Source: Eledone cirrhosa | Taxonomy: Eukaryota | Length of the DNA: 64,000 nt | Direction of reading: 5' to 3' | Assembly: GCA_964016885.1 (NCBI GenBank) | Contig: CAXHJY010001595.1 | Coordinates: forward strand, 13,509-77,508 | Shown: piece after piece, positions 21,155 through 62,597 of the stretch | Layout: each line of letters starts with the position of its first letter | Position numbering within the stretch: position 1 is the stretch's first letter | Translations under genes and position numbers: made by a program | Notes under the pieces: model-generated | Databases searched by the model: none | Told to the model about the DNA's origin: nothing | The model's input: the letters and a program-made list of their open reading frames with translations, nothing else

Positions 21155-21686
21155 AATATGGTTTTATAAATATAGTTTTCCATTTATTTAATATTGTAAA
21201 TATACTCCAAATATTTGTCGAGTGCTTTTATATCAGTTATAAATATTTACTAGTTGTAACCCAACAATTTTAAATATAACTTTACATGTATATATATATA
21301 TATATATATATATGCGTGTGTATCGCGAGTCGTGTCGTAAGGGAACCACAATAAATAAAATGTACTCAATAGATTGATAGAGTATATATATATATATATA
21401 TATATCTGTGTGTGTGTGTGTGTTTGTATGTATATATATATATATATATATGTGTGTGTGTGTGTGTGTTTGTATGTGTGTATGTATATATATATCTATA
21501 TGTATGTATATATATGTATATGTATATATAAATTTATATATATATATATACCAATATATACATATATACTTATATATATTCATATATATACATACACACA
21601 CACATATATATATGTCTGTGGTTGTATTAGTATATATATATATATATATATATATATATATATATATCATTATTAGTTATGTTCTA

Positions 21687-21871
21687 GGGCGGTGGATTGG
21701 CAGTATCGGTAGAGGGTCGGACGCCATACTTTCCAGCATAGTTACGTCCCTTTACGATCTGAGTTCAAATCCCGCCGAGGTTGACTTTGCCTTTCATCAT
21801 TACGGGGTCGATAAAATAAAGTACCAGTAATGTACTGGATAATTGCTGGCCTTGTGCCTAAAGTAGAAACA
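21687..21871 (+). mobile_element. Meta-like SINE with 18-bp target-site duplication
   Basis: ATTATTAGTTATGTTCTA at 21669-21686 and 21872-21889; empty site in the mirror copy near 14430. Confidence 0.9.
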
Positions 21872-24800
21872 ATTATTAGTTATGTTCTAAGGAAAATTAC
21901 GCGAATAACCGAGACCGAGAATGCTGGGGTACACTGTGTGTGTATATATATATATATATATATATATAGATAGATAGAGAGAGAGATACTGCTTTGACTG
22001 CTATTTCTAGCATATAAAACAAAAACCAGAAGATGTGAAAATTTATCGCAAGAAAGATAACTCTTCCTTGACTTAAATCCAAAATTGGGATACAAAAAAA
22101 TTGCGTGTGTGCAATTTAGATACAGACTTGTTATTACTAAGTAGTCCTTCTTATTTTGGGTTGTTTGGGAGCCTTTAACTGCAATGTTTAGCATGTCCTT
22201 CCTTTTTCTGTTGTTCTGTATGTATGTATGAATAAACACATGTATATATGCACGTGTGTATATATATATGTAGTACATATATATATAAATAAATATATAT
22301 ATATAAATACAGGTACCTATATATACATACATATATATATATAAATACAGGTACCTATATATATATATATATATATTAAATACAGGTACCTATATATACA
22401 TACATATATATATATAAATACAGGTACCTATATATATATATATATATATATATATATATATATATATATATATATATTTATTTATACATACATATATAGA
22501 GAACCACAGAAAAAGAAAGGACATGCTAGAAATAACAGCTATATCCCATAAAATGTGAAAAAAATGAAGGACATTTATTACAAATGGCAGCCAACGCCCA
22601 GAGAACAACAGAAAAAGGAAGGACATGTTAGAAATAGCAGTGAAAGGCCCCAAAACAAACCAAAATAAGAAGGACTAGTTAGTAATAATAAGTGTGTATC
22701 TAAACTGCACACACGCAATTTTTTTGTATCCCAATTTTGGATTTAAGTCAGGGAAGAGTTATCTTTCTTGCGAAAAATTTCGTTTTTGTTTACATAAAAT
22801 TTTCTTTTGTTTGAAAAGTTAGAGGAGGAAAAAGAAGAAGTTTTTTAATTTTCTCCTCTTCCGGGTTTTTATTTTTTATGCTAGAAATAGCAGTAGAGGC
22901 AGTATATATACGGTGTAACCCCGGCATTACGTTCCTTGTTATTCGCGGAATATTCCTTAGAACCTAATTAATTTCTGTTCGCGTAAATCACCGGATATTC
23001 GCGGAATCGTGAAGATCTGCGAATTGTAATGCCTTTTTTCATGGCAATTTATATTTTTTAACGCTAAATTATTAAAAACAATATACCGTATTTGCCGGTC
23101 TATGTGTGCCCCTTCGCATAAGACGATCCCTCTATTTTTATTAAATTTTACGTCCTATTTTGGTGTTAATAGGCATTTTTATGAACCAAGTCCAATATTC
23201 GGTGTTTTTCCCTCTTTGCGGGTGCCCCAGGAAGGGAACCCCGCCAATACCGGGGGACAACTGTATATGATTATATGGACTGACATGTAATATATTTATA
23301 CGAATATTTATATACATACCTATATATATATATATATAGAAATACATGTACATACATATTTATATATCCACACACACATATCTGTCTATCTATATCTATC
23401 CATATATATATCTGTCTATCTATATAAGTCACGGTTTATTACACTTTGGAGCCAGAGTGAGAGATCTGGCTGCTATCTTTTAGCAGATTTAGAAACTTCG
23501 GTAAACGGTTTATTTTTTCTTATTCCCGGTACTCTGAACTCGTTTGAAATGACTGGAGTGAGTTTATAAAAGGGTAAACTGAAATAGTTGCACCGGTAAC
23601 ATAATTAGAGTTACATCGGTAATTACAAAACATAATGTCTTTGGCATTCGTTGTAAGAGGTAACAGTTTTTATGCCGTCTGTCTTCGTGTATAACTGTAG
23701 ATTAACTTCCTTTGTTTATATAACATGTTGTCAACATGCATATTATTACTATATAATTTCACACACACTTACATACATTATATTTATACACATATAGGAT
23801 TTCATTATTCATCTTCGATTCTTTCTAATGAGAAGAGATAGAAATAATAAGTCAAGTTAAAGCTAAAGTATAATGATATAACAACAGTATATAATACTTT
23901 TCTCCACTTTATTCAGATTCGTTTTAAAGAAAAAAACATGATATTTAAAAGAAATTTATTTAATATCATAACATATAATATTTCAGGTAGGATGGTCGTT
24001 TCTGTTATCTTCCACATCTAGTTGTAGATTCGTCAGGTTCAGTGAATATCCTTTCCAGCCTTAATTATGTTGTCGATGTAAGCATAAATTTAATTTCTTC
24101 TTAAGTGAGGTGCAAATCCTTAGGTAGCCTTCTTGGTGGTACATTTATTAGCTTTAATTCATGTATCTACTTTTAATAAGCTAATATGTAAGTAAGAGTT
24201 GTCTAATCTTGGTCAGAATTGTCTTCATTATTTTTAAGTTTTATATAATTGCCGATAACTTTGCAATCTATTTGTTAGGTTGCTTATACCTACAAACCTT
24301 ATGTCAGTGTTCCTTCTTTTGAGACTTTTTATGGCATAATAAAAGTATCCCTCTTTCTCTATGAGAATAAATCGGCTGTTTTTAGACCAGGGGGGAGGGG
24401 AGGATTGACTCAGTCGTGTTTCAATGCCCACATTGTGGTAATTACGGAATCCCTACTACAATAGTTAAGTGTCTATGAAACCCACGCATTTCTGAGACTG
24501 AAAACCTTACTAATCTATTTTTATTTTGGTACTGGAATACAAAATTTTAAAAATATTATTATTTTCATTTTGGTACTGGTAAATAAAATTTTTAAAATAA
24601 TGTTTTTAAATTCACGCAAGTCAAAATATAATATATTTGAATGAATCTACAGATGGGATTTCGATATCTACCAGGAATTAGGAAATAGTGGAATATATAT
24701 TCTTTTAATTAAAAACTAATTATCAAAACAATAATAAAGAGATACACAGAAACATCTCTAGTGGGGATATTTCTGAGACTGGAAACCATATCGATGTATT

Positions 24801-26682
24801 TTGTCAGTGAAAAATTTATTAAAAAAATGTGCTTGCGAGTGTTTGTCGTAAGTAAAATAAATCTGCATATGGGATTTTGATACCTGCCAGAGCTTACGAA
24901 ATACTAAAATAATATATATTTTTTTGTTGTTTTTTTCAATTATTTCAAATACTGTATGTGGTTCTTTATTAACGAAATGATAAAATAGATTTAAATATAT
25001 TAAATTTGCACAGCAGAATTATGACCCCTTGGTGGTCGTGTGGTATCGTAGTTAGTGGTTGTTTGCCTAGGTAGTTAAGGTTCGAGTGGAGGGGGATTTA
25101 AAAAGGTAGCACCCGAGGGCAGAAAACATTTTAATTTTAAAATTATTTTAGACAAAGGAGATCGAAACCCTACCTTTAATCTAACATAGTTAAAGCACGC
25201 ATAAATACCCCCACAACTACCCACACGGCCACCTACAGATCGACAAAAGCGAACTGAAAATTAACACTCTTAAAGCTATTTTACTATTTGACTGGAAATA
25301 GGTTTATATATATAAATATTGACCAAAGAATTGTCTCAGTCTTTGTAGTCCAGTGGTAAGACATAGAGCTAGGGAATGCCGGGGTTGGCTTTCGAATCAA
25401 CTTATTATAATTTCATTTCTTCTTTTTATTCTCAGGCCGTAGAGGAACTTACTTCATTTCAACACGTAGTCATACTATTTAAAACTTTATTTTCTCTCTC
25501 CCTAGACACAGGACAATCGGCAAATAAACTTGTTTCATTTCAAGACGTAGTCGTACAATTTAAAACTTTATTTAAAGATAAGACAAAGACACATAAATAC
25601 ACTAGGTAGTAACCCCTTGAGGAGGAAGTGTGTCTGCTAATATCAAAGTTTCGTTAAATCTAGGGGTTCATTTTTATTGTTTTTAATATACAGAAACCCC
25701 TTAATAAAGTACAATGTACACATGTACAAGATATAAATGTCAGAACTCCATGTTCTTAAACTGTTAGAAACCTACATTTTATAGAAAGACGTAAAGAAGG
25801 AGTTCCATGAAGCCGATATTAGCCACACTAAGGACTGGACATAATGAAAAGTGTCGGGTTTGTGCAGATGGACACACCACTGCGTGACGAAAAAGGAGAT
25901 GCAAAGATGTCGGGAGTGTCTTGGAGGAGGGGCTGACATAAGAGCAGTAAGCTCCGAACAGATGAAATCAGTAATGGAGATGTAATCCTAGCTATGTGAA
26001 GAATATATGTAACAAACATGTTCTATAAACCTAACAAGTCAAACTACAGTTATACTCTAACTCAGAAGACAGATAAAACTTTACCTCTATCATGCATGTC
26101 GTTACCAATGTGTTGTTACAGGAAAACCGGTGAAACACTAAATATGCCACCGGTGTAGCGATTTTATATTCTCTCCTTCATTGTACAACCCAGTGACATG
26201 AAACTGTGTTCAAATCCTTGGGAGGTAGAATTACGAGGCTTTAAAATAAACACACTGGGGTGATCTTGAATATTGATTTCGTGTGAAAAATATATACTCA
26301 CACATACACCTATATATATATATTATGAATGTACCCCGAGCTATCAATATTAAAACAATTCTAATGTGCCAATAAAGTTTATATATATTACAGCAACAGT
26401 GTCTTCGGTTTGTCTTAATTTTTTTATTCACACTCTACAGCCGCTTTAATGCTGGAATAAAGTCCAACACGAGATGGACGTTATCTGCAGTTACCCTCGA
26501 AATTAACACACACACAAATGTATATATATAATATATACACTACTTAAGTGTTTGTCTTAATTTTTTTATTCACACTCTACAGCCGCTTTAACTCTGGAAT
26601 AAACCCCAACACAATACGGGCCTTGCAACAGCATCATGTGAGTGGGTAGAGAAACTAGCTGTAACTGTGGTTACACACACAA

Positions 26683-61974: not shown

Positions 61975-62304
61975 CATTTCATTTCATTTTACGTCCGCTT
62001 TTCCATGCTTGCAAGGGTGGGACGGGAACTGATTCTGGCTTGATTTCTACAGCTGGATGCCCTTCCTAACACCAACCTCATTTACAGTGAGTGCTGGGTT
62101 CCTTTTTTGCCGTGGCACCTCCACGACCACTTTGCAGTGGAATGATAGGGACCCCAGTCCCTATCATCTCATTTCTACAGCTGAGTAAACTGGAGCAATG
62201 TGAAATAAAGTGTCTTGCTCAAGGAAACAACACATCACCCGGTCTGAGAATTGAACTCACAACCTTTCGATTGCAAGGCCAATGCTCTAACCACTAAGCC
62301 ATGT
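61975..62304 (-). mobile_element. CORE-type SINE
   Basis: Reverse complement of 1364-1707. Confidence 0.88.
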
Positions 62305-62307
62305 ATA

Positions 62308-62597
62308 ACAGAAAAAAGAGAATCAGTGTTGCGACGAAATGAATTTATTGGACATATTACACTTGATTCTCAGGCGACCAGCTCGAGGCACGATTGATGT
62401 GGTGATCAAACCTGACTCTGAAATATCGATCGTGCCTCGAGCTGGTCACCTGAGAAACTATTGTAATATGTCCAATAAATTCATTTCGTCGCAACACTGA
62501 TTCTATTTTTCCTGTAATATCATACTCTGCTCCACAAGGGCATTGAGTGCTCATACGGCCTATTGCATACGGACGCTTTAAGCATCCAACACCAATT
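62308..62597 (+). mobile_element. Fold-back element (arms about 62320-62390 / 62427-62503) with the conserved 3' bulged hairpin
   Basis: Inverted arms; TACTC-TGCTC..GGGCA-TT-GAGTG at 62523-62549, then (TA)n. Confidence 0.7.

Follow-up and report, generated by a model that had tools for sequence, protein, structure and literature searches.

A hairpin with a two-nucleotide bulge occurs twice in Hydra-clade Penelope-like elements and lies next to the two ends of their palindromic insertions

Short palindromic repeats in the genome of Eledone cirrhosa share a hairpin with a 2-nt bulge near their 3' ends. We report here that this hairpin is real, that it belongs to the Hydra clade of Penelope-like elements (PLEs) and that the coding parent elements carry it twice, as HP1 and HP2. 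The stretch analysed, hereafter the window, comprises 64,000 nt (GenBank assembly GCA_964016885.1, contig CAXHJY010001595.1, positions 13,509 to 77,508 of the forward strand). An earlier note on this DNA had pointed out the hairpin in what it called ribozyme elements. These are 5'-truncated palindromic insertions of coding Hydra-clade PLEs, and five of their families (A, B, C, D and F) could be traced to the start of a Hydra open reading frame (ORF). The earlier note missed this, and it missed HP2, which is absent from the window because it sits beyond the long end of the insertions. The insertions typically have one short end, a few bases 5' of HP1, and one long end, a few bases 5' of HP2. 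We think it probable that the hairpin is a clade-wide cis element, present twice in the pseudo-long terminal repeat (pLTR) and 5' untranslated region (UTR), and that each copy binds the reverse transcriptase (RT)-endonuclease on the RNA and sets the RT start a few bases 5' of itself. Whether Hydra PLEs integrate by programmed twin priming, in which a cassette of about 130 nt with two hairpins would load two telomerase-like RTs and each hairpin would set the register for one strand, is in our judgement evenly balanced.

The window has a GC content of 30.7% and (TA)n tracts are abundant. The motif was counted against controls in the whole 3.0-Gb assembly that contains it (G000). The pattern TACTCY..RTYGAGTRCT matches 46,304 times (reversed control 320) and RGCTC..THGAGCWCT 17,981 times (reversed control 816), which gives about 64,000 matches against about 1,100 for both patterns together. 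As a guard against circularity, hairpins were also anchored on GAGYRCT located 25-75 nt before (TA)n, with pattern-selected centres removed (n=99). A CTC with at least three stem pairs after a 2-nt bulge was found at 54 of the 99 anchors, compared with 4.6 after shuffling, while bulges of 0, 1, 3 and 4 nt at the same anchors (7, 1, 2 and 4 cases) were at background. When all 39 flank clusters were kept, evident chance anchors included, upper pairs 1 to 4 were paired in 32, 30, 27 and 22 clusters (22.0, 23.6, 15.4 and 14.2 when permuted). In 53 hairpins from other genomes, anchored on the ATG of the ORF, pairs 1 to 3 were paired in 50, 35 and 37 cases (40.1, 21.9 and 21.4 permuted) and pair 4 was not significant. 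The upper stem thus covaries in both sets. That it always pairs is too strong a statement, with a U-U at upper position 2 in 13/31 HP2 copies and a 1-nt bulge in one G000 family. The proposed 5-bp lower stem did not hold up either. Its outer pair is formed in 19/39 clusters (17.6 permuted, p=0.36) and in 20/53 hairpins of other genomes (21.6 permuted); this fifth pair is not conserved and the lower stem therefore has 4 bp.

RNAalifold returned 4 bp, a 2-nt bulge and 3 bp, with A-U/G-C/U-A exchange at one base pair, for 27 hand-picked representatives (23 of the 39 clusters and four added loci), a set that is favourable by choice; its covariation score was 0.569 against 0.195 after shuffling. 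The core motif is an RCUC/GAGY stem of 4 bp, a U-H bulge, a variable, covarying upper stem and then an unpaired RCU. The bulge is UU, UC or UA in all 53 ATG-anchored hairpins, just as the TT, TC or TA of the earlier note would have it. GAGYRCUY, the 3' strand of all hairpins, is close to a dyad and its RCUY echoes the RCUC of the 5' strand; alternative or intermolecular pairing is possible. A comparison with Rfam, also suggested earlier, gave no matching family: the best 150 of 365 matches in the window were all below the gathering score and nearly all were miRNA models on microsatellites, and a scan of five hairpin loci gave a single unrelated match (E 0.42) and no curated model for the hairpin.

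A covariance model (R1) was built from the 27 representatives. It has 26 matches in the window, every one of them 31-66 nt 5' of (TA)n, a position for which 15.5% of the background would qualify. All 11 hairpins listed in the earlier note were found, and RNAfold gave the 2-nt-bulge fold for nine of these; at 47580 only the lower stem formed, and 47053 folded in a different register. The features of the window are as follows.

21203-21224, plus strand: HP1 hairpin, family A; read-through copies of the family run into HP2 and a Hydra ORF start
20802-21288, plus strand: palindromic insertion, family A; inverted repeat 20801-21195 followed by a tail on one side that holds HP1; flanked by (TA)n at either end
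21097-21138, plus strand: type I hammerhead core, family A; mirror copy at 20858-20899 (minus)
28105-28131, plus strand: HP1 hairpin, family B; the same pLTR precedes intact Hydra ORFs of about 800 amino acids in the tandem arrays L315/L316
27777-28197, plus strand: palindromic insertion, family B; inverted repeat 27781-28101 plus tail
28001-28047, plus strand: type I hammerhead core, family B; mirror copy at 27835-27881 (minus)
57640-57681, minus strand: HP1 hairpin, family C; read-through copies contain HP2 and the start of a Hydra ORF
57585-58117, minus strand: palindromic insertion, family C; inverted repeat 57687-58117 plus tail; hammerhead cores at 57749-57785 (minus) and 58019-58055 (plus)
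31120-31145, minus strand: HP1 hairpin, family D; family traced to intact tandem Hydra ORFs (L313/L314)
38533-38558, plus strand: HP1 hairpin, family D; R1 match
47818-47843, minus strand: HP1 hairpin, family D; R1 match
62523-62549, plus strand: HP1 hairpin, family F, after the palindrome 62304-62519; HP2 and a decayed Hydra ORF start in read-through copies
57484-57505, plus strand: HP1 hairpin, family A, in insertion 57156-57567
35966-35987, minus strand: HP1 hairpin, family A, in insertion 35901-36381
37987-38008, minus strand: HP1 hairpin, family A, in insertion 37922-38261
36453-36479, minus strand: HP1 hairpin, family B, in insertion 36397-36785
45443-45469, plus strand: HP1 hairpin, family B, in insertion 45218-45524
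51526-51552, plus strand: HP1 hairpin, family B, in insertion 51088-51607, which is interrupted by another repeat
49326-49348, plus strand: HP1 hairpin, family H1; L157/L172 have a very similar 3' end downstream of a Hydra ORF
47580-47600, minus strand: hairpin, family E; hammerhead seen in relatives, e.g. L088
47053-47087, plus strand: hairpin 47053; R1 match
52664-52686, minus strand: hairpin 52664; R1 match
33291-33338, plus strand: hairpin 33291, after the palindrome 33215-33286; related copy at 42805-42852 (minus)
49459-49494, plus strand: hairpin 49459; U-A replaces the R-Y pair
50594-50618, plus strand: hairpin; related copy at 50160-50184 (minus)
53574-53601, plus strand: hairpin of a further family; R1 match
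21363-21384, minus strand: tail-only copy (stretch 21355-21390), the hairpin directly after (TA)n with no upstream element sequence; related copy at 14784-14805 (plus) in 14778-14813
16722-16749, plus strand: degenerate hairpin of a further family; R1 match

The tracing to parent ORFs covers families A, B, C, D and F; family E and the hairpins 47053, 52664, 33291 and 49459 were not traced to a parent. Several other repeats share the window. A palindromic insertion at 33416-33789 has a one-sided extension of about 40 nt and no hairpin match, and possibly belongs to another PLE clade. Self-BLAST reveals a multi-kilobase repeat between 2000 and 26600, in about five diverged copies and both orientations. 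Tandem arrays with periods of 48, 23 and 72 nt lie at 39862-40857, 45931-46861 and 59692-60187, the 23-nt array within the palindromic element whose end carries hairpin 47053. Three segments (28528-29286, 58686-59114 and 60670-61290) resemble fragments from the C-terminal part of RT ORFs of long interspersed elements (LINEs).

The assignment of the parents to the Hydra clade is based on diagnostic motifs alone. Upstream, family D leads to a GIY-YIG domain with CxCX5C, a combination that marks the Hydra clade (PMC8557442). By inspection, the CxCX5C linker, a C-terminal GIY-YIG domain without CCHH, CxxC and CxH are present in the ORFs of P0001 (a protein from L159), L313 and L316. The RT motifs of P0001 are MRWK and SDKT; families B and D have SDKT with RWT or RWR, family A has RWR and family C has RWK. 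A Hydra RT pattern matches G000 at least 1,277 times (control 0), which is a lower bound because families B and D differ at this motif. Searches of Pfam and PDB sequences with P0001 gave no match, while 1,671 relatives were found in the database. Its structure model (predicted local distance difference test score, pLDDT, 90.5) has telomerases as the three top Foldseek hits (best E 2.7e-9), and by this model the RT is related to telomerase. The layout is also that of PLEs, with a pLTR, tandem and inverted truncated copies and a one-sided tail, and insertion into (TA)n, a trait of the Hydra clade, was found as well. By sequence, a hammerhead core is present in A, B, C and H1-H3. The fold of family D resembles a hammerhead, but its core is non-canonical (CTGAGAAG or CTTGAGAAG), and a search of family F for a CTGANGA core found none. 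The Hydra ORFs in G000 are about 2.1-2.4 kb long.

Other carriers were considered and set aside. A PLE motif identifies 3,970 Neptune-type RT copies in G000 (control 16), but none of the ten segments from hammerhead ribozyme (HHR) to element end in three Neptune-type families has the hairpin. At L074-L093 (G000:C1) there are several Neptune-type families with frames of 775-780 amino acids, minimal hammerheads, (TA)n ends and an inverted full-length pair, all without the hairpin. Naiad and Chlamys elements were rejected on a count of three 10-mers, [TCA]GAGCACTCT, which occur four times in the 584,334-character supplement of PMC8557442, three times in Hydra UTRs and once within a Naiad ORF, in a text where line breaks can hide matches. 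A selenocysteine insertion sequence (SECIS) element, as in some Naiads, does not fit a motif that lies before the ATG and not within a 3' UTR, and the ORFs of P0001, L313 and L316 are open under the standard code, where a SECIS goes with an in-frame UGA. A non-LTR retrozyme was discarded too, the window elements being single palindromes and their parents encoding RT and endonuclease (EN). A scan of viral contigs gave no Hydra relative. The published Hydra consensus sequences were inspected by eye: Hydra-2_Amil and Hydra-2_Ajap have the hairpin at their 3' end, Hydra-1_Ajap has it twice at the 5' start, Hydra-1_Crog has variant forms only, and none was seen in Hydra-1_Amil and Hydra-1_Obim, both of which end soon after the ribozyme (PMC8557442).

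The second copy of the hairpin emerged from a metagenome set of 78 Hydra loci, taken from the best 80 of 421 stretches. R1 has 134 matches there, 128 in sense and 6 in antisense. Six sense matches at contig starts were left out, and the 122 counted spread over 66 of the 78 loci. They form 39 pairs in 38 loci with a spacing of 55-83 nt. HP1 follows the HHR core by 43-79 nt in 32 of the 39 pairs and HP2 precedes the conserved ATG by 14-44 nt in 37; the order is hammerhead, HP1, HP2, ATG. Anchoring on the ATG alone finds GAGNNCT within 60 nt in 34 of 44 distinct UTRs. Of the two copies HP2 is the weaker, with a stem of at least 3 bp in 9/34 cases against 16/23 for HP1. The closing pair is U-A in 22/31 HP1 and C-G in 29/31 HP2 of the metagenome loci (L205-L282), which could mean different affinities. 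HP2 was predicted from these loci for the families of the window and was then found past the long end in read-through copies of D, B, A, C and F, followed each time by a Hydra ORF start. For family D there are 416 read-through pattern matches, the majority of those listed sharing a single continuation, and tandem 3.5-kb units with intact ORFs; for family B there are 339 matches, 3.9-kb units and an ORF of about 800 amino acids. Families A, C and F have 58, 94 and 13 matches (for F, five of the eight loci examined carry HP2). In family H3 (L164/L165; window 48012-48090 and 38272-38423) both hairpins have an apparent 1-nt bulge and the upper arm of HP2 is very long; the ends map in the same way. 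At L091:6640-7240 and similar pairs the hairpin is repeated at a spacing of about 580 nt in short tandem units, possibly a non-autonomous Hydra derivative. The position of HP2 just before the ATG would suit a pair that serves mainly as a 5' UTR operator for translation or autoregulation, with the ends coinciding for another reason. Such an operator leaves unexplained why the end offsets are sharp to a single base at both copies and why each palindrome has one end of each kind, and as the main function it is very improbable; it could be a second function of the pair.

The elements are palindromes between (TA)n tracts, and the inverted arm stops just before the hairpin, which therefore sits in the unpaired tail. 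Among the inverted arms that begin at (TA)n, 39 of 42 break off 0-10 nt ahead of the CTC. Using natural read-through copies as reference, 226 of 230 (TA)n-bounded ends from five G000 families map within 14 nt 5' of HP1 (115) or HP2 (111); 38 read-throughs were left unscored, and TA microhomology blurs the offsets. Most ends take one or two values between 3 and 10 nt, in family D 6 nt in 44 copies and 4 nt in 43. One short and one long end were found in 64 of 65 palindromes, the remaining one being long+long, and in 49/49 by a second method with loci that overlap the first set. Among 39 alignment ends in the metagenome set, 11 are located 3-7 nt ahead of HP1 or HP2, and the tail itself contains none. 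Each hairpin is preceded at 6-8 nt by a short TA motif: TA or AT stands at -7 in 23/31 pairs for each hairpin, and TAT or ATA occurs between -12 and -3 in 27/31 and 20/31 cases for the two hairpins, compared with 10/49 control windows.

Fixed offsets of this kind would look identical in DNA if the hairpins marked RNA 3' ends, formed just 5' of each copy by cleavage, termination or polyadenylation, at which the RT then starts. The AATAAA-like tract that the earlier note had placed before the hairpin is indeed found before the first site in families A-C. In A and B, however, it shares bases with the 3' strand of hammerhead stem I, and this clue is largely hammerhead stem I; only 11 of 25 other Hydra segments contain AATAAA or ATTAAA, so that a polyadenylation signal can be dismissed as a required part. 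Independent processing at two sites also predicts frequent long+long palindromes, seen once in 65, and PAc, a Poseidon PLE of the green anole, initiates internally on unprocessed RNA (PMC11167929). We regard RNA 3'-end formation as quite improbable. The hairpins might alternatively act in DNA, where the GIY-YIG endonuclease would recognise a single-stranded or extruded form in a longer intermediate, cut 5' of it and trim both ends. The tail has been ascribed to EN-mediated resolution (PMC8557442), the EN of D. virilis Penelope needed the tail for recognition and cleavage (PMC11167929), and the wobble counts given below are compatible with a DNA structure. Against this, the two RT start sites of PAc directly match its tail ends (PMC11167929), both hairpins stay uncut at every internal junction of read-through tandem units, and the TA motif that precedes each hairpin suits the annealing of a primer. 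Trimming of DNA is thus unlikely in our estimate, and we favour an RT start set by each hairpin on the RNA.

The two arms of the palindromes hold further information. The same subfamily 8-mer is found in both arms in 21 of 28 cases (4.2 shuffled; one pair clearly discordant), and they therefore come from one RNA or one source locus. Self-priming has been proposed for PLE palindromes (PMC3846280), and a single cDNA that snaps back, its return strand being stopped by the hairpin, would agree with these shared variants and with overlaps of 2-7 nt at 7 of 12 family B junctions. But in 14 of 23 asymmetric palindromes the arm that reaches further 5' has the short end and the tail is held by the other arm; snap-back fails for these because the first-strand copy cannot supply the tail. 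The long arm can be either one: in L313/L314 a 14-kb tandem array ends short and the inverted arm of about 0.3 kb ends long, and the two arms begin at different parts of the unit. The chance that snap-back accounts for the palindromes is accordingly slight. In family D both arms often stop within the same 15 nt or so (about TTTAGTCCAG; L313:5753-5763 equivalent, window 31200-31214 and 47900-47920), in the long stem-II loop of the hammerhead-like fold, which might reflect a favoured RNA 5' end or a favoured RT stop. One insertion at L317:620-1510 (G000:C2), with ends long and short, consists of 204-nt units that hold both hairpins, lack the hammerhead and are repeated in both arms; this suggests a circular or re-used template. 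All four junction matches of this unit come from one locus and therefore reflect a single event, and a mobile mini-element was rejected; L285 has a similar 257-nt unit.

Integration from two starts could proceed as follows. A tandem read-through RNA would carry HP1 and HP2, and two copies of the protein, possibly a dimer as predicted for PAc, would bind one hairpin each. The GIY-YIG domain would nick a (TA)n tract on both strands, and each nicked 3'-OH would anneal to the UA motif before a hairpin, placing the RT active site over this motif. Two cDNAs, one per target strand, would grow in opposite directions and stop at variable points. Joining of their 3' ends head to head would yield an inverted repeat with a one-sided tail made of HP1 and the spacer, and HP2 would never be copied at an end. 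The suggestion of a cis signal for the mobilising RT, made in the earlier note, appears as the best reading: the hairpin tracks one RT clade (66/78 Hydra loci, 0/10 Neptune-type ends), and the insertion ends lie at fixed offsets 5' of it. Several observations weigh against it. The wobble tally of G-U versus A-C is 11 to 13 in the G000 clusters and 10 to 4 in other genomes, so that the sense-RNA strand is unproven. Sense matches are missing in 12 of the 78 metagenomic loci, and 48 ends without (TA)n were left unscored in the end map. Because the hairpin served to select many of the loci, short+short palindromes are under-represented in the sample; long+long ones would show. The other 28 of the 39 metagenome alignment ends lie 13-48 nt upstream of HP1, apparently between-locus matches that share the ribozyme only (not checked individually). 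Family D junctions are mixed, with insertions in 29/51 and overlaps in 14/51. The wobble counts are uninformative, and from sequence RNA binding cannot be told apart from DNA trimming or RNA processing.

Two questions are described as open in the PLE papers covered, namely how PLE proteins choose their RNA and why the insertions have an inverted copy and a one-sided tail. A paired motif with ends that map to each copy is a precise and mutable target that makes the origin of the tail and the inverted repeat directly testable, and intact young ORFs are at hand in L313, L316 and P0001. If Hydra PLEs do integrate by programmed twin priming, this would make the hairpin the first RNA recognition element to be defined in a PLE and would give a mechanical account of the tail and the inverted pLTR; the cassette might then be enough for any RNA upstream of it to be inserted into (TA)n. 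The RTs of PLEs are the closest relatives of telomerase, and a start register set by a stem would therefore bear on RT evolution. In practical terms, the motif classifies tens of thousands of short, non-coding-looking palindromic repeats in G000 and predicts element boundaries.

Integration from two starts has a parallel in L1 twin priming, where the second target strand primes internally on the RNA and an inversion with microhomology results, occasionally, at variable sites and with non-overlapping segments. In the Hydra elements it would apparently be the rule, with two fixed sites and overlapping arms. It works similarly and the pattern differs, so that the L1 type was not retained. The 3' stem-loops of LINEs and short interspersed elements (L2 clade, R2) are likewise short structured cis elements by the priming site that share microhomology with the target. 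There, a single signal near the RNA 3' end is copied into the insert, whereas here two signals would each lie outside the cDNA that they start. Non-LTR retrozymes are also short hammerhead-bearing repeats related to PLE pLTRs, but they are non-coding tandem arrays, and the window elements are inverted truncated copies of coding elements (PMC7229834; bioRxiv 10.64898/2026.07.22.740005).

The class of element is known; what seems not to have been described before is that the hairpin is duplicated and linked one-to-one with the two insertion ends. A literature search gave no paper describing the motif, with Repbase, Dfam and Arkhipova 2006 outside the search and with figures in PMC11167929, including the RNA-fold figure S2C, that may bear on novelty. 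Craig et al. 2021 (PMC8557442) described the Hydra clade with RWK, DKT, CxCX5C, a C-terminal GIY-YIG without CCHH, the hammerhead and (TA)n insertion, as well as the layout of an inverted copy with a tail for PLEs, and the consensus sequences of that paper contain the hairpin. The hairpin, its pairing and the link to the ends are unmentioned in the parts covered ('hairpin' and 'stem-loop' do not occur in the supplement, nor 'stem-loop' in the main text), and the G000 tandem units of 3.5-3.9 kb compare with 'generally' less than 3 kb for the clade. The closest mechanistic counterpart is PAc (Frangieh et al. 2024, PMC11167929). Both target strands are cut and extended there, two internal RT start sites equal the tail ends, the targets are AT-rich, a dimer is predicted and a binding motif is suspected downstream of the HHR. 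PAc belongs to another clade, its binding motif was not identified in the parts of the paper covered, and an AC-rich stem-loop within its ORF holds the starts, whereas the Hydra elements described here have a conserved, covarying and duplicated hairpin 3' of each site, in the 5' UTR.

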